Below are positions 14,202 through 34,307 of a DNA stretch of 64,000 bases, one piece after another. How positions within the stretch are numbered: position 1 is the first letter of the stretch; every line of letters begins with the position of its first letter. The notes below the pieces were generated by a model. It was not told where the DNA came from, did no database searches, and was given only the letters and a program-made list of their open reading frames with translations. Made by a program: the position numbers and the translations under genes. Location: sequence record NZ_LC532224.1. One strand, written 5' to 3'. Origin of the DNA: a plasmid.

Positions 14202-14714
14202 TTAATCTAATTCTTCTTGAGAATACCTCTCTATGGCTGAAGCAGTTGAAGATAATCTGCAACGTGGACAGTGAGCATCATTTGTCACTGGCACAATGTA
14301 TGGGCGTTTACATTTTTCGCAGGCACCTAGTTCTTCAATTTCTTTCATAGAAGTAAGGATTTCTATTATTTTATTAACTTCCGGTGCGCATACAAAGTAT
14401 CCCAGATTATGAAGGACACTCATTATTCGGTTGAAGTCAATTTGCCGAAAACTCGCTTCCGGATTTATTGGATCAAAACCAAAATAGTTAACTGCGACAT
14501 CAATAACAGCAGAAAAGGCTCGGCGGTTATCTGTGCGTTTGCTCCAGCCCCGGATACCTTTTTTGAGTTTTGTTTTTGCACCAGGCTCAAAATCGATATT
14601 TTCAGCAACATGATTACCGTACAAAATTCGTATTGTATTTTTATTTGCCCCAAGCGACATAGTTCTTGCTGCTCGCAATAGAGCATTAGCTTTTGTTTGA
14701 TCGACCTTTGCCAT
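14202..14714 (-). CDS. Hypothetical protein with C-terminal zinc ribbon (CEKC...CPRC)
   Basis: CxxC-x16-CxxC motif; occupies the trhR/trhY-like position between the pilus operon and the putative oriT. Confidence 0.4.
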   Translation of the reverse strand: MAKVDQTKANALLRAARTMSLGANKNTIRILYGNHVAENIDFEPGAKTKLKKGIRGWSKRTDNRRAFSAVIDVAVNYFGFDPINPEASFRQIDFNRIMSVLHNLGYFVCAPEVNKIIEILTSMKEIEELGACEKCKRPYIVPVTNDAHCPRCRLSSTASAIERYSQEELD

Positions 14715-14715
14715 A

Positions 14716-15516
14716 TCAATAATCCTTTAACATAACTTTATTTGTTAAAGTGTTGAACACATCCTGACGGTGACTGGTGAACATAGTGTCATAACGTAAT
14801 AGTTCCATCAAATCATCACTAACTTTTCCTAACCGGATGTCAGCAGACAATTCATAAGCCCAGGCAAAAACTTTCGTTTTAAGTGAAACACTCTCTTCAA
14901 TATGCCCTTGTGAGAAAGCAATTGTACGTGGGAAAAGAACGACATCGTTAATTGTTTTTAACGATGAATAACCAATGTCTTTAATAGCATCAGCTGTAGT
15001 TGGTTTTAAACCAAAGAAAATACTTACAAACTCTGGTGCGAGCATTGAGATAAAGAACACCTGCATAAAGTAGTCATTCTGTATATCAACACATTTAGAA
15101 CGCAACTCATGAATCTTCTTGGGATTATAGATATCCACTGTACCATTCAGAAAAGTCACTTTTTCACCGGCATCGTAAATACCATAGTCAATATCATTTG
15201 TATCATATTCACGAATTACATTGGAATCACCGTCCAAGACCGCAGAAAAAAACCTCTCCCATGTAATTTCCTTTCCGAGTGTACGCGGAACCAAAAAACT
15301 ACCTGGACGTGTTTCCACTTCAAAAGCTAAATCAGCGGCTGTACTAAATCCTTTCCCAAATAGGCGACGCTGGAGAAGAGGAGTCCCAGTTTGATATGCA
15401 GAAGATCCATGCACAGGCAATAACATTAAAAATGCACGGTAACTACGAATAAGCGAAATCTCAGTGCGGAAAAGTTTACCGAGTAAGCTACGAGTTAAAT
15501 TATCAGATTCTGACAT
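14716..15516 (-). CDS. Hypothetical protein, 266 aa, operonic with the zinc-ribbon protein
   Basis: 2-bp gap to downstream gene; palindromic motif 75 bp upstream of its start. Confidence 0.4.
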   Translation of the reverse strand: MSESDNLTRSLLGKLFRTEISLIRSYRAFLMLLPVHGSSAYQTGTPLLQRRLFGKGFSTAADLAFEVETRPGSFLVPRTLGKEITWERFFSAVLDGDSNVIREYDTNDIDYGIYDAGEKVTFLNGTVDIYNPKKIHELRSKCVDIQNDYFMQVFFISMLAPEFVSIFFGLKPTTADAIKDIGYSSLKTINDVVLFPRTIAFSQGHIEESVSLKTKVFAWAYELSADIRLGKVSDDLMELLRYDTMFTSHRQDVFNTLTNKVMLKDY

Positions 15517-15588
15517 GTGCTGATTGTCCTTGCGCCATTACAATTGTTCAAATCTTCAACATGGATTTTTTGTTAGGTGTTCGGTAGG

Positions 15589-15606
15589 GTGAAAAGTAAC
15601 TTTTAG
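15589..15606. promoter_or_regulatory. Palindromic motif copy gtgAAAAGTAACTTTTag (75 bp upstream of 14716-15516)
   Basis: Motif family member. Confidence 0.5.
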
Positions 15607-15849
15607 TATTTTCTTAAGGCTTGAATAAGCCTTAAATCTATCCCTTCAACCACACCGCTTACTTGTAACACTTTTTAACCAAACTAACCAGAATTTTATC
15701 AAAAATTCCTGCGCATGCTAACGAAATGTGAAGCGATTAAAAAAAAACCTAAATCCAGCCCCTCCCAACGTTGGATTAGAATAACGACGTCTTTCACTGA
15801 CCGTCATAAACTGACATTTTTACTTTTCATCAACCTCATGCTTACATAG

Positions 15850-16010
15850 GATCACTAAACAAAGAAAAGTGACCCTATGAATGCCTCACATAGGGTCACT
15901 TATGTTTGAAAAGTGACCCTATGTAATGTCGTCATAGGGTCACTTTTTATAAAAGTGTCACTATGGACAAAGTTCCATAGGGTCATTTTTTTTGGAAAAG
16001 TGGCACTAGA
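15850..16010. repeat. Three tandem units (spacing 42-44 bp), each an inverted repeat AGTGACCCTATG-N9-CATAGGGTCACT (third unit degenerate); candidate oriT/relaxosome or regulator-binding iterons
   Basis: IR1 15868-15900, IR2 15912-15944, IR3 15954-15985, plus a fourth half-site near 15997; lies between divergent operons immediately upstream of the relaxase operon. Confidence 0.55.
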
Positions 16011-16074
16011 TATATGTATAACTTTAATAGAGCAATGCACATTATCAAAAGCAATAATCCACAATGGTCATTCT

Positions 16075-16093
16075 GTCAAAAGTAACTTTAGGG
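16075..16093. promoter_or_regulatory. Palindromic motif copy gtcAAAAGTAACTTTAggg (upstream of the relaxase operon)
   Basis: Motif family member. Confidence 0.5.
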
Positions 16094-16275
16094 GGTAGCG
16101 ATGGAAGTGAGGCTAAACTCGCTGTTACTGTTTCTGAAGGCCCCTCCCGAATGGGGGAAACAGCGAGTGCATTACATCTGTTCAATTCCCTCATCAAAGA
16201 GCATTCAAAAATCTTCTGTTCGTGAAAAAAAACGGAAATTTCCTCCGGTATAGTAATTTCACATCAGGAGGCGTC

Positions 16276-16761
16276 ATGAGTAATTCAAATCTTATAAGTT
16301 CTATAGAGCTAACACGTAAAAATTTACGTGCTCAGATTGAAGGTTTGCGTGTTGAGGCTGAAGATCTCATTACAAAATACTGGATCAAGTGGAAGGAACG
16401 AAACCACCAAGAGATTAACCTTACCCGACATAGCAAAGTTCCAAAGAGGGAGTACCTGGGTTCTTACGCACCAAAAGTTGAGCTAATTGGTAATGCCAGA
16501 AAAGTAACGATCACTTGGCATCAGTTCAGCCCTTATAAAACAAGAGCGCCTAGCCACATGTCAAAACGGGTGCAACCAATGAAAAGTGGAAAATATTCTA
16601 AGAACTGTTTTGTAAACCATGCCAGCTGGGAATACGAAATGATTTCTGAAACGGAAGCATTGCTGGAGCCTTACAGAGAAATGCTTGAGCTCTATCATTC
16701 AGCATATATCGAACTTGGACGAAAAATCCGTCAATACTCAAAAACTAAGGTGGCACAATGA
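16276..16761 (+). CDS. Hypothetical protein upstream of relaxase (candidate relaxosome accessory); start set to ATG after RBS AGGAGG
   Basis: Strong RBS caggaggcgtcATG; first gene of the traI operon. Confidence 0.4.
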   Translation: MSNSNLISSIELTRKNLRAQIEGLRVEAEDLITKYWIKWKERNHQEINLTRHSKVPKREYLGSYAPKVELIGNARKVTITWHQFSPYKTRAPSHMSKRVQPMKSGKYSKNCFVNHASWEYEMISETEALLEPYREMLELYHSAYIELGRKIRQYSKTKVAQ

Positions 16762-17495
16762 ACGACGCAATTATCACGGACAATGAGCGTATTAACATTG
16801 AACCAAAAGATGTAATGGTAAAAGGTTCAAATAAAAAGCAAGGCGTAAACGCTCAAACTTCTACTCAACGTAGACCAGAGCACCAGGGTATGGCCAAAGT
16901 TATTATTAACCCCGGCACCCCAGACTTTAACCGGTTTTTAACTGCCAGAAATGGAGCAGTCATCAGAGGTTTTGATGATGTGAGTATCGCTATTTCCTCT
17001 CTCTTTAAAACGGTTGATGCAGTTAAACATCCTGACCTTGTTCAGGCTATTCAGGATTGGTTCAACGAGCTGCATGAAGAAAACAATAAGATGAAAGAAA
17101 ATCTTGTTGCTTATATTAAGTCAATTGAGTTCGACAAGAATGACTCATTCATGTCATCAACTCAGTTTGTACCTTTCAGTTTTGAACCAGTACAACTCAA
17201 CTTCAATAACCACAACACCATGAGGTTTTACAAGTACATCTTCGAGATGAACCAGCTCATGAACACAATGTATGAGTACAACTCATTGGGTTTACTGGCT
17301 GTAAGCGACTATCCGGTTATGTCTCACAACATTATAAAGAGTATTAATTTATATGTTGAGAATGTGAAAAAGACTCTGAATGTTTCTCGCCGTAAGGATG
17401 GGCCATACAGTCCAGCAGAGTTCATCACCAAAGTAATGCAATATAAAAGTGTGCAGGCATACATTGCAGCCGAACTGTCAGGCAAACGTCGATAA
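16758..17495 (+). CDS. Hypothetical protein, 245 aa, translationally coupled (ATGA overlap) to upstream ORF
   Basis: Overlapping stop/start; position suggests a relaxosome component. Confidence 0.4.
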   Translation: MNDAIITDNERINIEPKDVMVKGSNKKQGVNAQTSTQRRPEHQGMAKVIINPGTPDFNRFLTARNGAVIRGFDDVSIAISSLFKTVDAVKHPDLVQAIQDWFNELHEENNKMKENLVAYIKSIEFDKNDSFMSSTQFVPFSFEPVQLNFNNHNTMRFYKYIFEMNQLMNTMYEYNSLGLLAVSDYPVMSHNIIKSINLYVENVKKTLNVSRRKDGPYSPAEFITKVMQYKSVQAYIAAELSGKRR

Positions 17496-17498
17496 GGT

Positions 17499-20400
17499 AT
17501 GATGATGAATTTCAGGGCGCTGTATTTATGTATTAAACGGATTTTGGGGATATTCTCATCTCAGGAGAATGATGCAACCTCTGTAATGATTGAGGATATA
17601 TCAAGCCTCTCTCCTTTTGCGCAGATTCTAGGAGATCAGAAGTACACTGTTCCTGATCATCCAAATCCAGAAGTCCTGAAATTCATCGAGTATCCAACTC
17701 GTCCGACGGGCATACAGACATTTAATGAACAGTCAATCCTGTCTCTGTATCGGGAAAAGCTGCACTCAATTTCAATGATGTTAGCTATCAGCGATAGCGA
17801 CATCAGGGACGATGCATATACATTTACTAATTTAGTTTTAAAGCCCTTGGTTGAATATGTTCGCTGGATACATCTTTTGCCAGCTTCCGAAAATCATCAT
17901 CATAATGGTATTGGTGGGTTACTTTCTCACAGCCTGGAAGTGGCCATACTCTCTTTAAAAAATGCGCATCACTCAGAACTGAGACCAATCGGATATCAAG
18001 ATGAAGAAGTAGTCCGTAGAAAAGTATATCTCTATGCTGCGTTTATCTGTGGTTTAGTCCATGATGCCGGAAAGGTTTACGATCTCGACATTGTAAGCCT
18101 GAATTTAGCTAGTCCGATCATTTGGACGCCAAGCTCACAAAGTCTTCTTGACTGGGCACGTGAAAATGACGTGGTTGAATACGAAATCCACTGGCGAAAG
18201 CGTATTCATAATCAACATAATATCTGGTCCAGCGTTTTCCTTGAGCGAATCCTAAACCCGGTATGTCTTGCATTTTTGGATCGGGTAAATAAAGAACGTG
18301 TTTATTCAAAAATGATCACCGCCCTAAACGTTTATACTGATGGGAATGACTTTTTGTCTAAATGCGTGAGGACCGCTGATTTCTATTCTACTGGTACAGA
18401 CCTTAATGTTTTACGTGACCCTATCATGGGTCTGCGTTCTAATGATGCAGCAGCAAGGGCCATTAGTACCATCAAGCACAACTTTACCAGTATCAATATC
18501 AACAATTACAATGCTAAGCCTATGCACATCATTATCGTAAATGGTGAGGTATACCTTAACGAGAACGCATTCCTTGATTTTGTTCTCAATGATTTCGAAT
18601 TACATAAATATAACTTCCCTCAGGGAGAGGCTGGTAAGACCGTATTGGTAGAATCCCTAGTTCAACGTGGTTACGTCGAGCCCTATGATGATGAGCGTGT
18701 CGTTCACTACTTCATTCCGGGTATCTATTCGGAAAACGAAATATCAAACATCTTTAGAAATGGGATAGGGAAACTAGAATTCTATAACCTTCTTAAGCTA
18801 AGGTGGATTGGTTTAATCTTTGATTCCTATAAAATCCCTGACTCAGTGCCGGGTCTTTTTAGCGTTAATGCCAATAAAGACTTTATTTACATTGACGAGC
18901 AAAAAACAGTTACTGAATACAGAAGACCAGTGCCCGGTCGGGACGTTATAACTAAAATTACTGATACTGTTGAGACGGCTGTTCTTAAGGTTAATGATTT
19001 AGGCCGCTCCTCTGCCTCTATTGATGTTGATATACATTCTAAGAAAAATGAAGGCTCATCCGACGATTTTGAGAAGAAAGCCGAAAGTGATAATGAAATT
19101 GATAATGACACGCAGATAGTTAAATCTGAGGGTGAGGAAGCAGCTGATCCTGTCATTCCTGATATAGAAGAAAGTGAAGATGAATCGGCAAAGGACACGG
19201 AATCCCATGTCCTGGTCAACCAACTTCATGAACTCCTTTTAAGCGCTCCACTTTCCAATGACTATATAGTGTGTGTTGATGCTGTCCCCTACCTCAACAT
19301 AGATACCACTATGGCATTGCTGCCGGGATTAGATGAAAAAGCATTCAGTGAAGAGCCCTATTTCCAACTGACATTCAGAGAAGGCTCTCTCGATGGAATG
19401 TGGATAGTAAGGGACATTGACGATCTGCGTTTAGTCCAGCTCGGCGATAACTGCGCCGGGTTCCAGCTCACCTATCATGAGCCAAGAAGGCCAACAACTT
19501 TAAAGTCACTTTTCAATACTTCTATGTATCAGGCATTAGTGATTAATGATGAGTCTTCTGTTGAAAACTCTGCCCCACGTCCAAAGCAAACGCTTGAGCT
19601 GCCTCCCCCACGTGTAAATGCAGTCGAAGAACATTCTGGCGACGTGGAATATCATGGAACCGATAGTGCATCCGCGACTGGTCCGCTGAAAACTGAGGCT
19701 GTGGAATATGAACATTATCAACATCTTTTTGAGAAAGAAGATGAAGAGCATGAGATCATTGATTATACCGATTTCTCACAGCTTAGTGTTTCTCGGCCAG
19801 AAGTCGGTAGTTGTGCAACAAGCTCTTCGGTCCATAATGAAAAGCTTCTCTCCGAGCCGTCAGAATTACCAGAACTTAACCGAGAACAGAACGCTGATCC
19901 CCAGGGTACGAATGAACGCTCTATGGATGTTTCTGTAGGACAAGAAAACTCAGAACCAGATACTGAGGGTAACTGCCCACCACCAGCTGAAGTTGTGTAT
20001 TCCCAGACCGAAGCAGCCGCAACCAGTGTGATGGCAAGTGAAGAGCCCGCCTTACCTCCTGTACTTGAAGAATCAAATGGAGAGCATGCGCCCACAGACG
20101 CTAAGGGGCATCATCTTTCGCCAGCACTGGCCAGACTGTTCGCCCCAACAGCACCGGTAGAAAAACAAAATCCCAAGCGCAACCGGAATAAATCATCGGA
20201 CAAAGCAGAAGTACAAAAACCAGCATCACCTGTTTCTGGTCACAATCTGAACAGTAAAGTCTTTGCATCTACTGAATCAGACCAAAATGGTGAATTCTCG
20301 CTTATAAGCGAAGGTGACGTTACAGAGCTTGAATTTGTAGAAATTGCGTTAGTACTGCATCAAATTCTGTCCAAAATGGAGGTGGCGTTTAAAAGAAAGC

Positions 20401-20651
20401 GCAAAAACAGATTTATGGTAAGTACTCCTAATACTCTCTATCTGACCCAATCTTGCGTGGAAAAATTTGGGTCGCAGTTAGAGGCTCAAGATCTTTTCAA
20501 TAAGCTTCCTCAGTACCTCGTTAATTCTGGTGCTGTGATCAATACAAAATGCCATGCATTTAACATGCCTACTTTGCTGGCCGCATCAGACCGGGCGAAA
20601 GTGGACATTGAACGAATTATCAATAACCTGAAAGAGGCTGGGAACCTATAA
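17499..20651 (+). CDS. traI: MOBH-family relaxase TraI (HD-domain TraI_2 type) with long acidic disordered C-terminal half
   Basis: HHHNGIGGLLSHSLEV...HDAGK histidine/HD motif characteristic of MOBH relaxases (R27/SXT/IncA/C TraI); size about 1050 aa as in IncHI TraI. Confidence 0.7.
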   Translation: MMMNFRALYLCIKRILGIFSSQENDATSVMIEDISSLSPFAQILGDQKYTVPDHPNPEVLKFIEYPTRPTGIQTFNEQSILSLYREKLHSISMMLAISDSDIRDDAYTFTNLVLKPLVEYVRWIHLLPASENHHHNGIGGLLSHSLEVAILSLKNAHHSELRPIGYQDEEVVRRKVYLYAAFICGLVHDAGKVYDLDIVSLNLASPIIWTPSSQSLLDWARENDVVEYEIHWRKRIHNQHNIWSSVFLERILNPVCLAFLDRVNKERVYSKMITALNVYTDGNDFLSKCVRTADFYSTGTDLNVLRDPIMGLRSNDAAARAISTIKHNFTSININNYNAKPMHIIIVNGEVYLNENAFLDFVLNDFELHKYNFPQGEAGKTVLVESLVQRGYVEPYDDERVVHYFIPGIYSENEISNIFRNGIGKLEFYNLLKLRWIGLIFDSYKIPDSVPGLFSVNANKDFIYIDEQKTVTEYRRPVPGRDVITKITDTVETAVLKVNDLGRSSASIDVDIHSKKNEGSSDDFEKKAESDNEIDNDTQIVKSEGEEAADPVIPDIEESEDESAKDTESHVLVNQLHELLLSAPLSNDYIVCVDAVPYLNIDTTMALLPGLDEKAFSEEPYFQLTFREGSLDGMWIVRDIDDLRLVQLGDNCAGFQLTYHEPRRPTTLKSLFNTSMYQALVINDESSVENSAPRPKQTLELPPPRVNAVEEHSGDVEYHGTDSASATGPLKTEAVEYEHYQHLFEKEDEEHEIIDYTDFSQLSVSRPEVGSCATSSSVHNEKLLSEPSELPELNREQNADPQGTNERSMDVSVGQENSEPDTEGNCPPPAEVVYSQTEAAATSVMASEEPALPPVLEESNGEHAPTDAKGHHLSPALARLFAPTAPVEKQNPKRNRNKSSDKAEVQKPASPVSGHNLNSKVFASTESDQNGEFSLISEGDVTELEFVEIALVLHQILSKMEVAFKRKRKNRFMVSTPNTLYLTQSCVEKFGSQLEAQDLFNKLPQYLVNSGAVINTKCHAFNMPTLLAASDRAKVDIERIINNLKEAGNL

Positions 20652-22735
20652 TGTCAGATTCGAAGAGGACTAACCTCCATGCACAAGAGAATTTTTATCG
20701 GCCTATTCTTGAGTATCGTAGTGCCTCAATACTTTTGATTTGTTCGGTTTCTATGCTTTATATGGGACTTTCTTCAGACGGACTGGACATCGCCCCAATA
20801 GTTCTGTTCACCTCAATATTGCTTTTTTTGCTGTGCCTTTATCGTTGCAAAACAGCAGCGCCATTTTTGATGGCTCATTGGCGTGTATTCAAGCGACATT
20901 TCATGTTCGTTAGTCTTGATTCACTGCGTGTAATTAACAAAAGTAACTTTTTCTCCAATGAGCGAAAGTATCGTCAACTGGTTCAGGATTATCAAAATAA
21001 AAATAAGGATATACCCGAGCGAAAGTCCTATTTTTGTGATGGGTTTGAGTGGGGTCCGGAACATGCGGATCGGGCATATCAAATAGCTAACCTCTCCAGT
21101 GATAAACGTGAGATCGAGTTGCCATTCGTCTTCAACCCAATTAAGAGACATTTTGACGCAATGGCTCGTAAGATGGGCGGCAGCAATGCAATTTTTGCTG
21201 TGGAACGTAGGGAACCCATATTTGTAACTGAAGACAATTGGTTTGGTCATACTCTGATAACCGGAAACGTGGGTACCGGGAAAACGGTGCTACAGCGTTT
21301 ACTAAGCATTAGCATGCTTCATCTTGGTCATGTTGTTGTTGTCATAGATCCAAAGAACGATGCAGAGTGGCGAGAATCTCTAATGGAAGAGGCTAAGACC
21401 CTCGGTCTTCCTTTCTATAAATTTCATCCTGGCCAGCCAGCATCTTCGGTCTGTATTGATGTCTGCAACACCTATACTAATGTTTCTGACCTAACATCTC
21501 GTCTTTTGAGCTTGGTGACAGTTCCCGGTGAGGTTAACCCATTCGTTCAGTATGCCAAGGCTCTCGTTTCCAATGTGATTTCCGGGCTTTCTTACATAGA
21601 GAAAAAGCCTTCTATTTATCTGATTCACAAGAACATGAAAAGCCACATGTCTATTGTGAATCTTACAGTCAAGGTAATGGAGTCATGTTACGCGAGATAT
21701 TATGGTTACGATGTCTGGACCGAAAAAGTTAAGTACGTCGCTAACGATACCTTGCCGGTACGTTTCAAGCGTCTCGCTGAATGGTTTACGGCTCATTTCA
21801 TGAATTACGAGGGGTCCGAACAAATAGACTGGTTAGATACTGTTTCCCAGCTTATTGATTACTCAATGTCCGACCCAGAGCATATGGCTAAAATGACCGC
21901 AGGTATTATGCCTGTTTTCGATATGCTCATTGAAAAACCTTTAAATGAGCTTTTATCTCCTAACCCGAACTCAGTATCATCAAGAGAAATTGTAACAAGC
22001 GAAGGGATGTTCAGCACTGGCGGGGTGCTATACATTTCGCTTGATGGCCTTTCAAACCCCGATACAGCAGCTGCTATTTCTCAATTAATAATGTCAGATC
22101 TGACCTCCTGTGCCGGTAGTCGCTACAACGCTCAAGATGGTGATATGTCAGCTAATTCCAGGATAAGTATTTTTGTTGATGAGGCACACTCAGCCATTAA
22201 CAACCCTATGATTAACCTTCTGGCGCAGGGTCGTGCAGCGAAAATTGCACTGTTTATTTGCACCCAAACCATCTCCGACTTTATTGCTGCGGCAAGTGTT
22301 GAAACTGCCAATCGAATTACGGGGCTCTGCAACAATTATATAAGCTTGCGAGTCAACGATACTCCTACTCAGACGCTTGTTGTAGAGAACTTTGGTAAGA
22401 GTGCGATAAGCACAAATATGGTCACTTATACGACCGGTTCAGAAACATCTTTGCCGCATAATAACTTCTCAGGTTCAATCTCAGAAAGAAAGCAGACAAC
22501 TTTAGAAGAGAGTATTCCAAAGGATCTCTTGGGTCAGGTCCCTATGTTTCACATAGTTGCCAGGCTTCAAGATGGCAGGAAGGTTGTAGGCCAAATCCCT
22601 ATTGCTGTTGCTGAGAAACAAATGAAGCCAAACACAACTCTGTCGGAAATGCTTTTCAAGAAGGCCGGAAAAGTTACTTTGCGTCAAAATCTCGATATCA
22701 AAAATCTTAATAAATTTCTAAGGAAGTTGCATTGA
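20651..22735 (+). CDS. traG: Type IV coupling protein (TraD/TraG-family, FtsK-like ATPase), 694 aa
   Basis: Two N-terminal TM helices, Walker A GNVGTGKT, Walker B DEAH; same length as IncHI coupling protein TraG. Confidence 0.8.
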   Translation: MSDSKRTNLHAQENFYRPILEYRSASILLICSVSMLYMGLSSDGLDIAPIVLFTSILLFLLCLYRCKTAAPFLMAHWRVFKRHFMFVSLDSLRVINKSNFFSNERKYRQLVQDYQNKNKDIPERKSYFCDGFEWGPEHADRAYQIANLSSDKREIELPFVFNPIKRHFDAMARKMGGSNAIFAVERREPIFVTEDNWFGHTLITGNVGTGKTVLQRLLSISMLHLGHVVVVIDPKNDAEWRESLMEEAKTLGLPFYKFHPGQPASSVCIDVCNTYTNVSDLTSRLLSLVTVPGEVNPFVQYAKALVSNVISGLSYIEKKPSIYLIHKNMKSHMSIVNLTVKVMESCYARYYGYDVWTEKVKYVANDTLPVRFKRLAEWFTAHFMNYEGSEQIDWLDTVSQLIDYSMSDPEHMAKMTAGIMPVFDMLIEKPLNELLSPNPNSVSSREIVTSEGMFSTGGVLYISLDGLSNPDTAAAISQLIMSDLTSCAGSRYNAQDGDMSANSRISIFVDEAHSAINNPMINLLAQGRAAKIALFICTQTISDFIAAASVETANRITGLCNNYISLRVNDTPTQTLVVENFGKSAISTNMVTYTTGSETSLPHNNFSGSISERKQTTLEESIPKDLLGQVPMFHIVARLQDGRKVVGQIPIAVAEKQMKPNTTLSEMLFKKAGKVTLRQNLDIKNLNKFLRKLH
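22667..22683. promoter_or_regulatory. Palindromic motif copy ggAAAAGTTACTTTgcg (3' end of the coupling-protein gene, 50 bp before the next gene)
   Basis: Motif family member; second near-copy inside the same gene at 20936-20955. Confidence 0.35.
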
Positions 22736-27586: not shown

Positions 27587-27764
27587 TAATAGTTAATTTC
27601 AGATCCTTCTTCCAGTTACGCTTCAGTATAAAACCGATACCCTCTAATTCAGCATCCTTCACGTTTAATACGCTTCACTTTAAGGCAGGGCTTTTCGGTT
27701 GAAATGAATTCTTTTTCCGGTTGCTGGACATGGGTTTCATCCTGATAGTTAAAGTTGCAGGCTA

Positions 27765-28064
27765 TCAGTCACCACCACCACCTCCGTCACCTCCTCCACC
27801 GCCACCATCACAACCACCAGCTATGCTATTTTCACCATTACAATCACCTCCGAGGGGGTTCAAATGGCTGCTCCCCTGTAGATGGTGTCCTTGCCAGATC
27901 GAACCCGAACCAGCGCCTCCTGAGCGTCTTTGCTTGCCCTGAGGCAATTGTGCAGGCTCACCAGCACCGGCGGTACCAAAAATGTCCCGGGCAATTTTAT
28001 AAAGAAGGTAAAAAGGTACGCCCAGCATCATAAAAAAGATTACTGAAAATATTACACGTTCCAT
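27765..28064 (-). CDS. Small membrane protein with Gly/Asp-rich C-terminal tail encoded by a GGT/GGC/GAT codon repeat
   Basis: RBS caggagatcatcaATG; N-terminal TM helix; 3' third is a simple codon repeat (27770-27835). Confidence 0.4.
   Translation of the reverse strand: MERVIFSVIFFMMLGVPFYLLYKIARDIFGTAGAGEPAQLPQGKQRRSGGAGSGSIWQGHHLQGSSHLNPLGGDCNGENSIAGGCDGGGGGGDGGGGGD
27770..27835. repeat. Simple G-rich codon repeat (GGT/GGC/GGA/GAT)n inside the small membrane protein gene
   Basis: caccaccaccacctccgtcacctcctccaccgccaccatcacaacc read directly; source of spurious poly-Pro/poly-His ORFs on the opposite strand. Confidence 0.6.
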
Positions 28065-28496
28065 TGATGATCTCCTGTCTTGTGAGAGACCAGTTATATC
28101 AGGGTGATTCAGTATTTCCGTTTAGAAAAGAGTACTAATTTGGCCCTGTTCGCTCTTAATTTGCCATCCGGGAAAAAGTCATAGGGATAGGCCTGCCAGA
28201 GTCAATAACTTCCAGTGATCTGGAGGAGACCCCGGCTCTCTGAGCCCTCATGGATGGTACGGCTTTACCCCTTGTAAACAGATTCACGTTCCGCAGGACA
28301 AACATCGACTACTGACGTCTCATATTTGCTGACGCTAATCCGACGTCTCATTGCCGTCTGCTTGTTTTCTTTAAAGGGTGTATTAGACGAATATCAAATC
28401 GGAATGGTAGGGGATGTGTGGGCACCATGCCCGGCCCTCTTTGAGCATCTGAGAGATTGGAGACCTAGCCGGGTAAGATAGCTACTTTCTTACGGG

Positions 28497-28865
28497 TTAC
28501 CCTTCAAATCCAAAGACGAAACGGACGCTGCCGTTCTCCACGTGGAGACGCTTTACTTCTTCGACAAATTCCTGGATCACCTCTCCGGCGTTATCGGGTG
28601 GTATGGCTGACAAAATTTCTTCCGAAGTCAGCCATGAGTATGAATGTTCACCGAATAAATCATCATCTTCGGACGGTATATCATCAGGTAATCCGCGTAA
28701 TGCGTGGATAAAAACTGCTGATGTGCTCGCCCTTTCACGATCTACATCAAATCCGAGCCAGGCAAAGTGGAGATATGATCGGTCCCCTTTATAATTGCTT
28801 GATAAATTAATCCATTTACCAGGCTTTTCTTCCCTTTGAAATCGCCAGCAGATATCAACGCCCAT
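28497..28865 (-). CDS. Hypothetical protein, 122 aa
   Basis: ORF with plausible start; no domain recognised. Confidence 0.4.
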   Translation of the reverse strand: MGVDICWRFQREEKPGKWINLSSNYKGDRSYLHFAWLGFDVDRERASTSAVFIHALRGLPDDIPSEDDDLFGEHSYSWLTSEEILSAIPPDNAGEVIQEFVEEVKRLHVENGSVRFVFGFEG

Positions 28866-29090
28866 TAAGAAACTCCATTACTATCGTTCGTATGAGATAA
28901 CTATCATTTCAGAATACTATGACTTCTTCCCGTATAGAACTAATCGCTCACGCCATTTAGCTACTTACTTTTTTTACGTACGCTTGCAGCGCAGTACCTT
29001 GAGAGAAGTAAGTAAGACTGGGCGAAGCCAACCGGTTCCGCCACCTCGCTCACCGGCTTTTAGGCGTAAGCACTGAAGTCAGCCTCCATG

Positions 29091-29633
29091 CTAACTGGCG
29101 AGCCTGCGAAAGTCAGACTCGTTGTTATAAAGCGGCATATCGTAAGCAGTGTCTGAAATGAACATTCGGATCTGCTCAAGCGTCATGCCACAATGAAAAC
29201 GGGTTACGCTCACATTGGCCCGGGGGAAGTCAGCACAAAATGCATTCAAAACATTCTCATGGACAATACCAATGTTGATTAACGCAGCTGGCCCGTTGTC
29301 ACGGAAAGATACGACACGGAATCCCCCATACCAGCCTGACTGGGAGAAAAATGAAAATGCACTCGTTGCCAGACCATTAGACAGGTCATAGCGCAATTTC
29401 CCGCTCAGAGACTGGCTGTCTCTGCTGTACACGCGATTAATGAAAATGCCGGGACCAACTTCTACCGGCTGCTTGTTGCTTGCTAAACACGGAAAGCCCA
29501 CCAGCGAAACCTCCCTTTCTCCTAACCAGTTTACCTGATACCCGGCAGTGAGAAAGTCAGTCAGTTCTACGCCAGAAAGAGCATTAATGGCCGCAATATC
29601 GGTATCCAAAATATTTACGTTTTTCATATTCAT
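29091..29633 (-). CDS. Hypothetical protein, 180 aa (downstream gene of a two-gene cassette)
   Basis: 61-bp gap to upstream ORF on the same strand; no confident domain call. Confidence 0.4.
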   Translation of the reverse strand: MNMKNVNILDTDIAAINALSGVELTDFLTAGYQVNWLGEREVSLVGFPCLASNKQPVEVGPGIFINRVYSRDSQSLSGKLRYDLSNGLATSAFSFFSQSGWYGGFRVVSFRDNGPAALINIGIVHENVLNAFCADFPRANVSVTRFHCGMTLEQIRMFISDTAYDMPLYNNESDFRRLAS

Positions 29634-29694
29634 CTCATCTATATTCTAAAGTGCGTTTTTTGTCTATCAGCCCGAGGATTGAAAATTTGAATAT

Positions 29695-30132
29695 TTAATG
29701 TGACAGAAAAATACCTGTCACCTTTTCAAAAACTGCCTGCAATTGAATATCGAGAGAGTCCATTTTAAAATCCACCAGCTCAGCTTTATTATCGCAAACC
29801 GAATAAAAATAGGAGTCAAATGCGTCTGTATCTTCATCTTTAAAAATACGGAAGGAATTAATTTTATTATGCCCTTCAAATTCGGCATGAATACCATAGC
29901 GAACCGAGCCGTCATCGAACTGAACAACCCGTCGTACAGAATTAATCCGGACGTACTGTTTTAAGGCCCTCGCGAAATCGGCATTTAACGCCAACGCTCG
30001 TAAGATTGAATCAGCGGTTTCATTCTGCTTTTTACGATCATATTCAAACATCCCACAGCCGGTGTTACGAAAGACCGGCTGAAGAGCATTAACCAGGTTG
30101 AAGGAATCCACGTTTCTGTCGTTTCTGTACAT
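29695..30132 (-). CDS. Hypothetical protein, 145 aa (upstream gene of a two-gene cassette)
   Basis: RBS ggggcaggagatatctcATG; operonic with 29091-29633. Confidence 0.4.
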   Translation of the reverse strand: MYRNDRNVDSFNLVNALQPVFRNTGCGMFEYDRKKQNETADSILRALALNADFARALKQYVRINSVRRVVQFDDGSVRYGIHAEFEGHNKINSFRIFKDEDTDAFDSYFYSVCDNKAELVDFKMDSLDIQLQAVFEKVTGIFLSH

Positions 30133-30176
30133 GAGATATCTCCTGCCCCTCCGCTATACGAAGGGGCTTGATAGGG

Positions 30177-30473
30177 TTACTGCCAGGCTGCGATCACTTC
30201 TTCGCACTGGAAATGAGATAAGCACTGCTGGAGTAAAAGGGCCAGCACCGCTGTGTTAGGGACGCGATTGTTACACCACGCGTTGAATAGCAGCTGCCAT
30301 GGACCGGCATAATACCCGGCCAGTTTCTTTTTTTGTTTATCTGTGCAGCAGCTGGAAATGGCCTGCTGATAAAGGCTTTCATTCTCGGCACCAGAGCGTT
30401 GTTGCAGTGCCTGATAAATATAGGAGTAGACAGAATCGGAGCAATTAGATGCATAGGCCAGATTGGTTTTCAT
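30177..30473 (-). CDS. Hypothetical Cys-rich small protein, 98 aa
   Basis: RBS aggaggtattATG; no domain recognised. Confidence 0.35.
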   Translation of the reverse strand: MKTNLAYASNCSDSVYSYIYQALQQRSGAENESLYQQAISSCCTDKQKKKLAGYYAGPWQLLFNAWCNNRVPNTAVLALLLQQCLSHFQCEEVIAAWQ

Positions 30474-30607
30474 AATACCTCCTGTGTTTTTGGGTATTAT
30501 ATAAAACTCCGACCTACTGGCTAATAACCCACACTGTAATTTCTTTTAAAAACACAATAAATTTTCAAAATTGGACCAGTGTGGATTTAAGCGAGCAGTT
30601 TAAATCT

Positions 30608-31168
30608 TTATGAACTAGCTTTCAAAGAGGTTGGTTTTTCGGGAAGTTTTTTGCCAGACCAGCATGTTGGTTTTTTTTCTGTAGTGCAGATTAGCTGGTA
30701 CCTGCCCCTTCTTACCTCTTTGAGCAATGACTGTTTGAAATATGGTAAGCCCAGTTCAAAAACCCAGTAACGACCGTCTGCAAAAACGACTGAATTTTCA
30801 ACGCCATCCGAAGCCACCAAGGATGCATCATTAAGTAGACGTTCTTCATAATGAAATGGTAATGAAAATGTCAGATATAACGCACAAAGTACAAAGATTC
30901 CTGTGAGACTAACTGCCAGTGAACCACAATAACCAGAATAAACATTTAAATTTCTTTTGATAAATTTCTCATGCAAGATTACAAGCAGACAGAATACACA
31001 AGCTACCAGCCCAAATCCTACATGCAGATAAAACTGTCTTATTTCATCATTCCAGACGATGTTGTCCCATTTCGTGCTTAAGATTGAACCCAACAAGGAG
31101 ATAATAAAAGCGGCAATTTGAGAACTGATAAAGTAGGAGAAAGCTGACTTTGAAGTTATTTTTTTCAT
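30608..31168 (-). CDS. Integral membrane protein, 186 aa; IS903 inserted 43 bp upstream of its start
   Basis: Four or more hydrophobic helices. Confidence 0.4.
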   Translation of the reverse strand: MKKITSKSAFSYFISSQIAAFIISLLGSILSTKWDNIVWNDEIRQFYLHVGFGLVACVFCLLVILHEKFIKRNLNVYSGYCGSLAVSLTGIFVLCALYLTFSLPFHYEERLLNDASLVASDGVENSVVFADGRYWVFELGLPYFKQSLLKEVRRGRYQLICTTEKKPTCWSGKKLPEKPTSLKASS

Positions 31169-31211
31169 AGAAACAGGAACCTCTTTACCTCGTTCCTGAT
31201 CAGAGAAAAGA

Positions 31212-32268
31212 GGCTTTGTTGAATAAATCAGATTTCGGGTAAGTCTCCCCCGTAGCGGGTTGTGTTTTCAGGCAATACGCACGCTTTCAGGCATACCTGC
31301 TTTCGTCATTTTGTTCAGCGCTCGTACCAGGGCCATAGCCTCCGCAACCTGACCATCGTAGTCACGCAGCGTCAGTGAACCCCCGAACAGCTGTTTTACC
31401 CGGTACATCGCCGTTTCCGCTATCGAGCGACGGTTGTAATCTGTTGTCCATTTCCACCGCGCATTACTCCCGGTCATTCGCTGATTAGCCACTGCACGGT
31501 TACGGTCTGCATATTCACCGGGCCAGTAACCCGCACCTTTTCGGGGAGGGATAAGCGCGCTGATTTTCTTACGCCGCAGTTCATCGTGACATAGCCGGGT
31601 ATCGTAAGCGCCATCGGCGGCGGCTGACCTGATTTTCCGGTGGGTTTGCCGGATTAACCCGGGGAAGGCCTCTGAGTCCGTAACGTTGTTCAGCGACAGG
31701 TCAGCGCAGATGATTTCATGTGTTTTACTGTCAACGGCGAGATGCAGCTTACGCCAGATACGGCGGCGTTCCTGGCCATGCTTTTTGACTTTCCACTCGC
31801 CTTCACCGAAGACCTTCAGCCCGGTGGAATCAATTACCAGGTGTGCGATTTCACCCCGGGTGGGCGTTTTGAAACTGACATTAACCGACTTTGCCCGCCT
31901 GCTGACACAGCTGTAATCCGGGCAGCGTAGCGGAACGTTCATCAGAGAAAAAATGGAATCAATAAAGCCCTGCGCAGCGCGCAGGGTCAGCCTGAATACG
32001 CGTTTAATGACCAGCACAGTCGTGATGGCAAGGTCAGAATAGCGCTGAGGTCTGCCTCGTGAAGAAGGTGTTGCTGACTCATACCAGGCCTGAATAGCTT
32101 CATCATCCAGCCAGAAAGTTATGGAGCCACGGTTGATGAGGGCTTTATTGTAGGTGGGCCAGTTGGTGATTTTGAACTTTTGCTTTGCCACGGAACGGTC
32201 TGCGTTGTCGGGAAGATGCGTGATCTGATCCTTCAACTCAGCAAAAGTTCGATTTATTCAACAAAGCC
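31212..32268 (-). mobile_element. IS903 (IS5 family), 1057 bp, 18-bp terminal IRs GGCTTTGTTGAATAAATC, 9-bp TSD GAGAAAAGA on both sides
   Basis: Ends and duplication read directly (TSD 31203-31211 and 32269-32277); internal 322-aa ORF is the IS903 transposase. Confidence 0.9.
31268..32236 (-). CDS. tnpA: IS903 (IS5-family) DDE transposase
   Basis: Near-identical to the known IS903/IS102 transposase sequence by recollection; inside the IS ends. Confidence 0.9.
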   Translation of the reverse strand: MKDQITHLPDNADRSVAKQKFKITNWPTYNKALINRGSITFWLDDEAIQAWYESATPSSRGRPQRYSDLAITTVLVIKRVFRLTLRAAQGFIDSIFSLMNVPLRCPDYSCVSRRAKSVNVSFKTPTRGEIAHLVIDSTGLKVFGEGEWKVKKHGQERRRIWRKLHLAVDSKTHEIICADLSLNNVTDSEAFPGLIRQTHRKIRSAAADGAYDTRLCHDELRRKKISALIPPRKGAGYWPGEYADRNRAVANQRMTGSNARWKWTTDYNRRSIAETAMYRVKQLFGGSLTLRDYDGQVAEAMALVRALNKMTKAGMPESVRIA

Positions 32269-32689
32269 GAGAAAAGACACAAAACGCACCATGCGCAAAA
32301 AACTGCAAGTCCAGATGCAATAATCTCGCGTAAAAACATATTAAACGTTTCCGATAATGAATAAGTAATTACCATATCCTCTCCGTAAGTCTACATATAA
32401 TTCAGACGTGACAAATAATTAAAGGCATTGCTATTCTATCATTATGCATTGCGTTTAAAATCATTTCTAATTCAGCAGAGTAGCGATACAGGCATTTCGC
32501 TATCCTAAAATCTGGTAGCTTTCCATTTCCTTGCTGAGATAAATCAAAATAATTCTATTTATTGCCTATTCGGATGCTGCAAAACCTTATAAATCCGGAT
32601 GTATATCACTTAACAGTGAACCATTCGGTGACTTGCTCTCCGTGAGGTCCACCGGGTTTATCCAGTAGGGAACATTCTGCTTTTACCGT

Positions 32690-32971
32690 TTACTGCATAC
32701 GCGAGCAGGAATTCTGTTGCAGTTCTGCATTTGCCTGCTTTTCCAGTGCTGTCATAACCCGGCGGAGCATCGCCAGAGCCTGAACAGGCGAGCTCCCAAA
32801 CTGCACTTTCACTTCATCCGTATCATGATCCTGAATCAGGTCGAGGATGTTCACTTCGATCCCTGCCCCGTTTTCATCTTTTGCCGTGCACTGAATACTT
32901 ACCCGGGTCACCGAATCCGTCAGGACTGGCAGTGGGTTAGTCTTGTCTACGTTGATAAAAGCCTTCTTCAT
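32690..32971 (-). CDS. Hypothetical protein, 93 aa
   Basis: ORF with plausible start; no domain. Confidence 0.35.
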   Translation of the reverse strand: MKKAFINVDKTNPLPVLTDSVTRVSIQCTAKDENGAGIEVNILDLIQDHDTDEVKVQFGSSPVQALAMLRRVMTALEKQANAELQQNSCSRMQ

Positions 32972-33036
32972 TGCCCTGTTTCCCCTTGTCCTGAAAAAGT
33001 TACCGACCCGTCCGGATGGAGGGGTCGGTCAGAAAA

Positions 33037-34221
33037 TCATGCCTGTCCCTTATTCATCTTCTCAGCATGCTTACGCAGGTACTCTTTCAGGTCAGCATGA
33101 GCATTGATGATATCGTTCATTTCATCATTGGTCAGAACAAGCGTGTAAGTATCAGTGCTGACAGATTCACCTTCTTTAAGCTTGGCTTCTTCAGCAATAC
33201 GTTCAAAAATCGGGATCGCGGTGTCGGCAATGACGGTCACGGTCTTTTTGTTCAGAACGCTGGACATGGATGGTGCTTTACCTGCCGGGTTCTGTTTAGG
33301 AGCGCTGTCCTTTGGAGCCGGAGCTGGTTCCTGTACCGGTGGCGTAACCAGCGTCTCTGTATTGCTTTCATCATTCAGTTGATCCGGTACCGGGGTGTTA
33401 ACGGTAGCATTACCTGCCGGTTGCTCATCACCGGAGTTTTCCGGAGTCTGCGGATCTGCCATGCGCTCTTCTACCTTGGCAGCTTTGACGAATTTCAGCG
33501 TGTTTTTCGTCGCTTTACCATAGATGGAGATCGCCTTGTTGATGTTATCTACCGCATCCTCACCGCTGTACATATACTCGTCCAGCGCAACGTACATGCT
33601 CACCTGATCGCTCACAAGCATGGTCTGTAGTTCAGAAGGCAGGTCCAGTACGCGAACCATCTGGCGAAGATGCTGCTCTGATTTACCACGTTTTTTTGCC
33701 AGTTCCGCAAAGGTCTTAGGCTCTTCTTTATCTTCAACAAGACGCTTAATTGAAAGCGCTTCAGCTACGACAGACAGCGCCAGGTTGGAGTTGCCGGTCA
33801 GGGTGAAGAGTTCTGCTTTTGAAGCGCTACCGCGAAACTCTTCGCAGCGAATACGAGTAATGCGTTCACGCCCTTCTGCTTCCAGCTGGCGGTTTGCAAT
33901 AGCGATGGAACGGATACGGCAAGCCCCCTGACGCAGTACAGGTACGCCATTAACCATCTGAACAACGATAGGCGTCACGCTGAACGGGTCTTCCATGTAG
34001 GCATCGGCCAGGCTGTTCAGGTGTTCCACAACGTGAGGCATTGAATAGTAGAGCTCGCCCATACCGGCCGTGCGGGTGTTAAAGCCTTCCTGCTCTACAA
34101 CAACCGAAGGGTCAATGATAAGGCCGTTACCTTTACGGGCACCGTTACCAGTGCGTTCCAGGTAACCACGAAGGCTGATTTCGTTGCTGTTGTTTTTTAC
34201 TTCAGTTTCGATTGCGGACAT
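33037..34221 (-). CDS. ParB/Srx-superfamily (ParB-like nuclease/partition-type) protein with Pro/Glu-rich linker
   Basis: N-terminal region resembles ParB/Spo0J N-domain; two copies of the GAAAAGTAACTTTTC palindrome at 90 and 220 bp upstream of its start. Confidence 0.5.
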   Translation of the reverse strand: MSAIETEVKNNSNEISLRGYLERTGNGARKGNGLIIDPSVVVEQEGFNTRTAGMGELYYSMPHVVEHLNSLADAYMEDPFSVTPIVVQMVNGVPVLRQGACRIRSIAIANRQLEAEGRERITRIRCEEFRGSASKAELFTLTGNSNLALSVVAEALSIKRLVEDKEEPKTFAELAKKRGKSEQHLRQMVRVLDLPSELQTMLVSDQVSMYVALDEYMYSGEDAVDNINKAISIYGKATKNTLKFVKAAKVEERMADPQTPENSGDEQPAGNATVNTPVPDQLNDESNTETLVTPPVQEPAPAPKDSAPKQNPAGKAPSMSSVLNKKTVTVIADTAIPIFERIAEEAKLKEGESVSTDTYTLVLTNDEMNDIINAHADLKEYLRKHAEKMNKGQA

Positions 34222-34307
34222 TTTTGTTCTCTCTTTTGGTTGGTTGTTTAACTGCGCTACAACACAACAATACCAGGTTCGACATTTTTTCTAATAGGTT
34301 GCACAGA

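Follow-up and report, generated by a model that had tools for sequence, protein, structure and literature searches.

What function is served by the tandem palindromes that lie between the divergent trhR and traH genes of plasmids of incompatibility group HI (IncHI)? The question concerns positions 15845-16010 of a 64,000-nucleotide stretch of plasmid DNA (NZ_LC532224.1, referred to here, at its full length, as the window), where a sequence-only reading had proposed a candidate origin of transfer (oriT) or relaxosome assembly site. The array is likely to be the protein-binding platform of the IncHI relaxosome, bound by the protein TraH, located next to the nick (nic) region of the oriT, and copied by hitch-hiking chromosomal islands. 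A 138-bp module, which includes three of its four palindromes, is very probably the core of this oriT. The IncHI1 and IncHI2 megaplasmids are important vehicles of resistance genes such as mcr-9, blaNDM, and blaIMP and, in typhoid strains, of multidrug resistance, but their oriT has so far been placed only to an intergenic region, and the recognition of DNA by the MOBH1 relaxosomes is poorly understood. The analysis narrows the candidate core to a precise 138 bp, and adds a consensus for the half-site, with variants of specificity that occur naturally, and a candidate nic region.

Over 15500-16300, the window is 100% identical to R478 (NC_005211.1), an IncHI2 plasmid from Serratia marcescens, and the same holds for hundreds of other IncHI2 plasmids. 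The array sits in a 759-bp intergenic region between the divergent trhR/trhY (minus strand) and traH (plus strand) groups, 266-431 bp upstream of traH, which is followed by the genes of a TraI_2 relaxase and a type IV coupling protein. Within the array there are eight half-sites of 15 bp each (AAAAGTGACCCTATG), alternating in orientation, which form four palindromes of 33-35 bp. The centres of successive half-sites are 23, 21, 23, 21, 21, 22, and 23 bp apart (mean 22.0), a spacing of two helical turns, which places all eight on one face of the DNA. The units, the tail that follows them, and the module are as follows:

15845..15879: Unit A, CATAGGATCACTAAA-N5-AAAAGTGACCCTATG, a 35-bp palindrome, the least conserved unit
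15889..15923: Unit B, CATAGGGTCACTTAT-N5-AAAAGTGACCCTATG, 35 bp, the left edge of the module shared with the islands
15933..15965: Unit C, CATAGGGTCACTTTT-N3-AAAAGTGTCACTATG, 33 bp, its right arm a conserved variant (GTGGCAC in other lineages)
15976..16010: Unit D, CATAGGGTCATTTTT-N5-AAAAGTGGCACTAGA, 35 bp, its right arm degenerate alike in every lineage
16003..16025: conserved non-repeated tail CACTAGATATATGTATAACTTTA, the candidate nic region
15888..16025: minimal conserved module of 138 bp, units B-D and the tail ACTAGATATATGTATAACT, common to the IncHI1/HI2 plasmids and the chromosomal islands, the proposed core oriT

Neither the Photorhabdus lineage, where it has been lost, nor any of the island copies has unit A.

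Sequence inspection and shuffled controls confirm the tandem palindromic iterons that the sequence-only reading had described at this place, with a spacing of 42-44 bp and spacers of 9-10 bp. Its three units, which start 44 and 42 bp apart, are all present, although it had added a single half-site to them where there are two, which makes eight half-sites, or four units:

15868-15900: its unit 1, AGTGACCCTATG-N9-CATAGGGTCACT, perfect
15912-15944: its unit 2, AGTGACCCTATG-N9-CATAGGGTCACT, perfect
15954-15987: its unit 3, AGTGTCACTATG-N10-CATAGGGTCATT, imperfect, with 9 of the 12 positions paired
15845-15856: extra left half-site, CATAGGATCACT
15999-16010: extra right half-site, AGTGGCACTAGA

The phasing, by contrast, is the opposite of the one proposed, in which two arms surround a spacer of about nine nucleotides (N9). 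The spacers within CAT...CTTTT-N-AAAAG...ATG units are 5, 5, 3, and 5 bp in R478, 6, 5, 3, and 5 bp in a metagenomic lineage (L017), and 3, 3, and 3 bp in the Klebsiella lineage, whereas those of the N9 type, at 9, 9, and 10 bp in R478, become 12 and 23 bp in Klebsiella. Given that the CAT...CTTTT-N3-5-AAAAG...ATG spacers are steady, while the N9 spacers vary, the constant unit is the 33-35-bp palindrome, with CAT and ATG outermost.

A chance origin of these repeats is excluded. The 12-mer, with up to two mismatches, has 13 matches in the window against 3.7 +/- 1.9 expected, a number that is reached in none of 100 shuffles, and seven of the 13 lie within the 166-bp array. The 15-mer pattern has eight matches, against 0.97 expected, and across the whole of R478 (274,762 bp) the 12-mer with no more than one mismatch is confined to the array. 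Two further places in R478 recovered by blastn were rejected, as they represent the array matching its own opposite strand. Of the 1,422 PLSDB plasmids that carry the array, 936 have it at an identity of 99% or more. As single-stranded DNA, the array folds strongly (-40 kcal/mol, z = -9.1).

Comparison of the IncHI lineages separates the conserved parts of the locus from those that have drifted. Besides R478, the array is present in the following lineages:

L019: Photorhabdus plasmid-like contig, TraH 86% identical to that of R478
L002: IncHI1 plasmid pHCM1, TraH 76% identical
L003 and L004: pNDM-CIT-type and pF1267-type plasmids, TraH 75-78% identical
L020: TraH 59% identical, half-site CAWAGAGTCACTTTT
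L017/L018: metagenomic lineage, TraH 54% identical, half-site CATAGTGTTACTTTT (L017)
L007 and L015: Klebsiella IncHI1B/FIB(Mar) and Pluralibacter, TraH 39% identical, half-site CATTKGTAWCTTTT in the Klebsiella lineage

The half-site of the HI1/HI2 plasmids is CATAGGGTCACTTTT. Expressed as mean pairwise values for six IncHI lineages, identity is 0.85 in the half-sites (0.91 without unit A) and 0.87 at tail positions 16011-16025, against 0.41-0.43 in the spacers of the array and 0.51 in the flanks. All eight half-sites of pHCM1 are nearly identical to those of R478, for example, while identity between the R27-type IncHI1 plasmids and R478 falls to ~75% in the spacers and the remainder of the intergenic region. 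Where the half-sites differ between lineages, the same change is found on both arms and throughout all the units. Mere hairpin potential needs only complementarity within a unit, and this concerted evolution points to recognition by one sequence-specific binding protein, in preference to hairpin potential alone.

Copies of the module outside the plasmids provide the second line of evidence. A scan of metagenome contigs for the exact palindrome recovered 36 loci. In 28 of these loci the array has its usual IncHI setting, with homologues of TraH or TrhR (mostly both) on its flanks, and the short contig L044 has a TrhR homologue only. The seven others (L024, L028, L035, L045, L046, L048, and L051) have no homologue of TraH, TrhR, TrhY, TraI, or the product of the 245-aa open reading frame (ORF) of the H operon, ORF245. 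These island-type contigs, with a G+C content of 46-52%, carry only units B, C, and D and the tail AAAGTGGCACTAGATATATGTATAACTAC, and have neither IncHI promoters nor the 13-bp palindromes found elsewhere on the plasmid. They form two families, mutually unrelated outside a 156-bp stretch, with an AlpA-family gene ~20 bp from the array in the first, and a DUF1233 putative excisionase ~275 bp away in the second. When the HI1 and HI2 plasmids are compared with the islands, identity is 0.94 in the half-sites and 0.83 in the tail, but only 0.32 in the spacers and 0.26-0.32 in the flanks, so that everything except the half-sites and the tail has drifted to near-random. Among the islands, the tail is invariant (identity 1.00).

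The module and the AlpA gene are also found together at eight chromosomal places in 5,426 complete genomes of Escherichia coli. In E. coli EC2001, the island spans 20.3 kb at a tRNA-Gly gene (NZ_CP133811.1, 921104-941428; L059 13105 to L058 15387), is bounded by a 17-bp direct repeat (CCCTTCGCCCGCTCCAA), with the integrase beside the tRNA-Gly, and carries the module ~1 kb inside its right end. Its products include a P4-type integrase, two AlpA proteins, SSB, an Icd-like protein, and a primase of the TOPRIM/DUF927 type, besides a YafO toxin, a Rap1a immunity protein, and a protein with an SLT domain; neither a MobI nor a relaxase domain was found in it. The island combines the features of an integrative mobilisable island that mimics an oriT, that is, an integrase, attachment (att) repeats, and a gene of the recombination directionality factor (RDF) type, with no relaxase. 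The mobilisable genomic islands (MGIs) of the SXT/R391 family and the iOriT elements are similar in their integrase, att repeats, absence of a relaxase or MobI, and match to the oriT core of a helper. The tRNA-Gly island has regulators of the AlpA type, and differs from the SXT/R391 MGIs in that its putative helper would be an IncHI plasmid, rather than an integrative and conjugative element, and its backbone is P4-like (integrase, Icd-like protein, and TOPRIM/DUF927 primase). No description of islands with an IncHI oriT was found in the accessible literature.

The retention of the module on islands that lack the IncHI genes and promoters argues strongly for units B-D and the tail as a portable cis-acting unit, in what would be a pattern of oriT mimicry, and against the mere regulation of two IncHI promoters. 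As chromosomal islands carry the IncHI core, the IncHI plasmids may mobilise both islands and chromosomal DNA in trans, and the chances that the islands are really mobilised by these plasmids are, judging from the sequences, slightly better than even.

Between the array and the right attachment site of the EC2001 island (L058 15010-15140) there are also repeated GTTGGTTCA and TGAACCAAC motifs, distinct from the oriT-like array, which are probably arm-type sites of the integrase or excisionase.

The protein that binds the half-sites is, with reasonable likelihood, TraH. The ORF at 16276 is equivalent to the TraH of R27, and encodes 161 amino acids from an ATG at 16276 preceded by AGGAGG; the length of 179 amino acids given to it at first corresponds to the GTG start of the longest ORF. 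Both its profile (Pfam MobI PF19456, E 3.5e-22, 79.2 bits against a cut-off of 26.6) and its fold identify TraH as a member of the MobI family. Its AlphaFold2 model (predicted local distance difference test score, pLDDT, 86; predicted template modelling score, pTM, 0.78) has helices at residues 3-47 and 117-160 and strands at 64-71 and 76-83, that is, two helices of ~45 residues, each ~66 A long, and a small beta-sheet, as described for the MobI of the IncC plasmids. No structural relatives of TraH were found in the PDB, where the best matches were the prefoldin and V-ATPase stalk topologies, at E > 0.2. The net charge is +11 in TraH, in comparison with +3 in ORF245, -4 in TrhR, and +5 in TrhY.

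The behaviour of the related proteins is consistent with this role. The R27 TraH has been cited as a MobI-like factor needed by the MOBH11 relaxases (PMC13635750), and MobI-like genes directly adjoin the oriT in SXT and R27, as in Rts1 (PMC10838148), while the oriT of the IncA/C plasmids is found immediately upstream of mobI (PMC5587640). The IncC MobI self-associates as dimers and multimers, gives a single major peak overlapping the oriT and mobI in chromatin immunoprecipitation with exonuclease digestion (ChIP-exo), and binds a C-terminal domain of the relaxase, which it recruits (PMC13635750). In the dimer modelled for it, a pair of long helices runs antiparallel, and a positively charged face bears two sheets of three strands each (PMC13635750); an antiparallel dimer of TraH could, by the same geometry, span half-sites that are 21-23 bp (71-78 A) apart. 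The beta-hairpin region of TraH is near-invariant in four lineages that have the HI1/HI2 half-site, and its strand positions are substituted in P0013 and P0017, lineages with different half-sites. The suggestion that a relaxosome accessory factor is encoded nearby is supported for the 16276 ORF, as a member of the MobI family, but not for the 14202/14716 cassette, which consists of the trhY and trhR activators. In the 245-aa protein, there is no sign of a DNA-binding fold.

In the mechanism proposed here, a dimer of TraH would occupy each 33-35-bp palindrome and polymerise along one face of the DNA, forming a platform that would recruit the MOBH11 relaxase TraI. This relaxase would nick one strand close by, for which the traH-proximal tail ACTAGATATATGTATAACT (16003-16025) is the candidate, and would then pass the DNA to the coupling protein TraG. 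The islands, by copying units B-D and the tail, would borrow the IncHI relaxosome, a form of oriT mimicry. The tail is nominated as the nic region because it is the sole conserved non-repeated sequence of the portable module, and the placement of the nic site within it is offered tentatively, at somewhat less than an even chance; cleavage would be expected in or beside ACTAGATATATGTATAAC. The broader proposition, that the 138-bp module is a self-sufficient IncHI oriT, that the tRNA-Gly islands of the E. coli/Citrobacter type and the DUF1233 family spread by hijacking the IncHI1/HI2 relaxosome, and that the half-site is the first defined recognition sequence of the MobI family, is evenly balanced between being right and being wrong.

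A number of observations weigh against the platform bound by TraH. The geometric fit between TraH and the half-sites is based on the model of a monomer and a published description of a dimer, rather than on coordinates. TrhR, TrhY, and ORF245 co-diverge with the repeats as TraH does, which means that covariation cannot single out TraH, and the correlation between its beta-hairpin and the half-site, with TrhR diverging in parallel, is suggestive, but not decisive. While the IncHI array consists of four 33-35-bp palindromes at a strict period of 43-44 bp, located 266-431 bp from traH, the oriT of IncA/C has short inverted repeats of 4-7 bp and overlapping 14-bp direct repeats, and the oriTs of IncC and the MGIs abut mobI, with that of IncA/C overlapping the mobI promoter. 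Given that the IncA/C oriT is built differently, the recognition rules of the MobI family are not simply transferable. Small plasmids carrying the array alone are also absent from PLSDB, where all 1,422 matches are large IncHI-type plasmids.

An 8-mer, AGATAGAT, is common to the IncHI1 tail CACTAGATAGATGTATAAC (pHCM1, L002, corresponding to window 16003-16022) and to the dissected oriT core of IncA/C, ATTCCAGATAGATAG (pR55, L021, 264-280), and in pR55 and IncHI1 alike it lies where the repeats end on the mobI side. It may hint at a nic motif of MOBH1, or may be a chance match in AT-rich DNA. A nic consensus of the IncP type (CCTG at 15708), which is not conserved across the lineages, was dropped without detailed testing, as were single-strand promoters of the Frpo type, which the short, perfect hairpins of the array do not resemble.

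The alternatives turn in part on the features that surround the array, which are, from left to right:

14202..14714, minus strand: trhY, the second tra-operon co-activator
14716..15516, minus strand: trhR, one of the two tra-operon co-activators
15592..15604: copy of the 13-bp palindrome AAAAGTNACTTTT, left of the array, conserved in position
15693..15721, minus strand: candidate trhR promoter, sigma-70-like, with -35 TTAGCA (15721-15716), a 17-nt spacer, and a TG-extended -10 TAAAAT (15698-15693)
16078..16090: copy of the 13-bp palindrome with one mismatch, 68 bp right of the array, its position kept in all the IncHI lineages, absent from the islands
16249..16271, plus strand: candidate traH promoter, -10 TATAGT (16249-16254), with a ribosome-binding site AGGAGG (16266-16271), present in all lineages
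16276..16761, plus strand: traH, 161-aa MobI-family protein, ATG at 16276
16758..17495, plus strand: 245-aa ORF of the H operon (R0118-like), with a soluble, all-helical low-confidence model and no known domain
17499..20651, plus strand: traI, MOBH-family relaxase, TraI_2 domain
20651..22735, plus strand: traG/traD, type IV coupling protein gene

The array might act only in transcription from the divergent trhR and traH promoters, as an operator or upstream activating site to which TrhR/TrhY, HtdA, or an autoregulatory TraH would bind, with the oriT elsewhere in the intergenic region. It is indeed flanked by two divergent promoter candidates, and proteins that bind an oriT often also regulate the neighbouring promoters, as in the case of TraM/TraY of F and TraJ/TraK of RP4, precedents with which a secondary regulatory role would be compatible. 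TrhR and TrhY, moreover, activate the H operon (PMC7366339). Neither promoter core is overlapped by the array, however, which lies at least 125 bp from the trhR -35, outside the invariant block of ~90 bp (15657-15745) that contains the trhR promoter, and ~240 bp from the traH -10. The 12-mer with no more than one mismatch is absent from the examined upstream regions of F, AC, and Z, as are 15-mer matches with up to three mismatches, those elsewhere on R478 looking like chance. The islands, furthermore, keep the module under intact selection with no IncHI promoters or regulators, and the pF1267-type plasmids keep the array intact with a frameshifted trhR, so that an operator alone is very unlikely. 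It is also unlikely, although less so, that TraI itself recognises the palindromes, as hairpins in single-stranded or cruciform form, with no part for TraH in their recognition. The strong folding of the single strand (z = -9.1) and the position of Unit D, which abuts the conserved tail, are what would be expected of such hairpins, and the MOBH2 TraI of the gonococcal island (GGI) needs a 32-nt inverted repeat 3' of nic, in which the structure matters, and not the sequence (PMC6736028). Hairpins would need complementarity alone, whereas all the units of a lineage share their sequence and change together, the arms of units C and D hold conserved variants that are not complementary, and a single nic site needs no three to four near-identical hairpins. 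The MOBH1 relaxases, unlike those of MOBH2, also depend on a MobI adaptor (PMC13635750).

If the array is a binding site for a protein, the binder may still be other than TraH, either the 245-aa product of the H operon or a regulator acting across the plasmid, which would recognise the 13-bp palindrome AAAAGTNACTTTT as well. This palindrome, with 50 sites on R478, has copies flanking the array in every IncHI lineage, and 9 bp are common to it and the half-site (AAAAGTGAC / GTCACTTTT), which leaves the earlier claim that the arms of the array are distinct from the global palindrome doubtful; the island copies, on the other hand, have no 13-mer. As for ORF245, in all the lineages examined mobI is followed by a gene of about this size, also in Vibrio, where the protein is only marginally similar (E 0.066), but the ORF245 model is of low confidence (pLDDT 58), all-helical, and near neutral, with no match to a DNA-binding domain, and in the related IncC system it is MobI that has been demonstrated to bind the oriT. 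A binder of this kind is distinctly unlikely. The least room is left for a site of site-specific recombination or multimer resolution that mimics an oriT through cointegrates, like RecHS of IncA/C, where a 14-bp inverted repeat masquerades as an oriT (PMC5587640). The array does have several inverted-repeat sites with short central spacers, and its island copies lie ~20 to 280 bp from excisionase-type genes. These genes belong to unrelated families, however, AlpA and DUF1233, beside one and the same array, and the island of E. coli is provided with att repeats of its own, as well as with separate arm-type repeats, GTTGGTTCA, ~1 kb away. On R478 there is no recombinase gene within 12 kb on either side, and eight half-sites at a spacing of two turns are unlike the known sites of the res/dif type, all of which makes recombination highly improbable. 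Replication iterons or a parC/parS centromere were rejected, given that no Rep or Par cassette adjoins the array; the rep genes (R478 1-876 and 260265-261353) and par genes (15475-17729 and 20835-22522) are far from it.

The platform bound by TraH can also be set against the systems already described. The R27 oriT, of IncHI1, is a homologous locus with the same order, trhY-trhR / array / traH-orf-traI-traG. Lawley et al. (2002) reportedly cloned the traH-trhR intergenic region of R27 and found it to be mobilised by R27, and only the whole intergenic fragment is said to have been assayed. The accessible literature assigns no function to the palindromes, defines no TraH binding site, and maps no nic site in this region. 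To our knowledge, no nic site of MOBH1 has been mapped, and no binding sequence of the MobI family has been defined. Given that the locus is the known oriT region of IncHI, the sequence-only reading was right in its interpretation, but this was not new. Its candidate relaxosome site draws support from the identity with R478, the MobI-family TraH, the placement of the oriT in the literature, and the island-borne module. The additions to the accessible literature are the anatomy of eight half-sites and their phasing, the evidence of selection and covariation, the 138-bp module with its candidate nic region, and the islands.

Like that of IncHI, the oriTs of IncA/C and SXT/R391 (MOBH12) lie upstream of a MobI-family gene, with MobI as the specificity adaptor, and have been copied by mobilisable genomic islands. 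The IncA/C oriT is AT-rich, with repeats in both orientations, such as the approximately nine ATTCCA/TGGAAT motifs in 200 bp of pR55. TraH and the IncC MobI can barely be aligned, however, and the C-terminal domains of the relaxases differ between MOBH11 and MOBH12. In the TraM-sbm system of F and the TrwA-sba system of R388, several symmetric sites on the same face of the helix, between nic and the first gene of DNA transfer and replication (Dtr), receive an accessory protein that oligomerises, and form a platform by which the relaxosome is connected to the transfer machinery. These systems are analogous only, with no kinship of sequence or fold to TraH. TraM and TrwA are ribbon-helix-helix tetramers, unlike the long helical hairpin and small beta-sheet of TraH and MobI.

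A scan of the genome collection with a TraH alignment recovered four loci only. The Vibrio hepatarius locus L016, with a MobI that is 32% identical, has eight direct repeats CGGCACCGAACT (2445-2945) between a divergent pair of a parM-like gene and a small ORF and the mobI homologue, which is followed by a 235-aa ORF. Given that an actin-like ParM and a small ORF are the divergent neighbours, the repeats may be a parC centromere, and the locus was not used in support of MobI-linked arrays; an oriT, alone or combined with a centromere, would also fit the repeats.

TrhR and TrhY are the transcriptional co-activators of the IncHI tra operons (PMC7366339). Neither has a significant match in Pfam, NCBIfam, or the sequences of the PDB. 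The C-terminus of TrhY (residues 131-152) has a CEKC-N15-CPRC motif, of the form CxxC-N15-CxxC, with a weak match to a Zn-ribbon in Pfam (E 0.017), which we take to resemble the zinc site of FlhC. The motif suggests that TrhR and TrhY are activators of the FlhDC/SetCD/AcaCD type. A conserved sequence upstream of the traH -10, GTTCGTGAAAAAAAA, has no counterpart at the F, AC, and Z promoters, with which only A/T tracts of 7-8 bp are held in common.

The 13-bp palindrome AAAAGTNACTTTT is strongly over-represented, with 14 matches in the window against 0.5 expected, and 25 of its 50 sites on R478 are exact. In the window, the sites are at 2394, 3295, 12534, 15151, 15592, 16078, 19501, 20939, 22669, 27571, 34311, 34438, 51831, and 53688. 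They are both intergenic and intragenic, many of them in intergenic gaps or just past the ends of genes, and are not systematically found at the promoters that depend on TrhR and TrhY.

Some features of the locus and the plasmid vary between copies. Between the array and traH, R478 has a long imperfect hairpin (window 16106-16168; ACTCGCTGTT...CCCC-N8-GGGG...AACAGCGAGT), which is not kept in IncHI1 or the other lineages. In the pF1267-type plasmids (L004 1697-2517), trhR is split into ORFs of 176 and 149 amino acids, apparently by a frameshift, with an IS1 nearby, and these plasmids, which are typed as mobilisable, have the array, traH, and the relaxase gene intact despite the split. The window comes from an IncHI2 plasmid other than R478 itself: downstream of Tra1, the two are not colinear, in that ~27600-34300 corresponds to R478 202457-217287 with an offset of ~8 kb in the motif positions, and the stretch over which these positions shift is occupied in R478 by a tet(B)/insertion sequence (IS) cluster.

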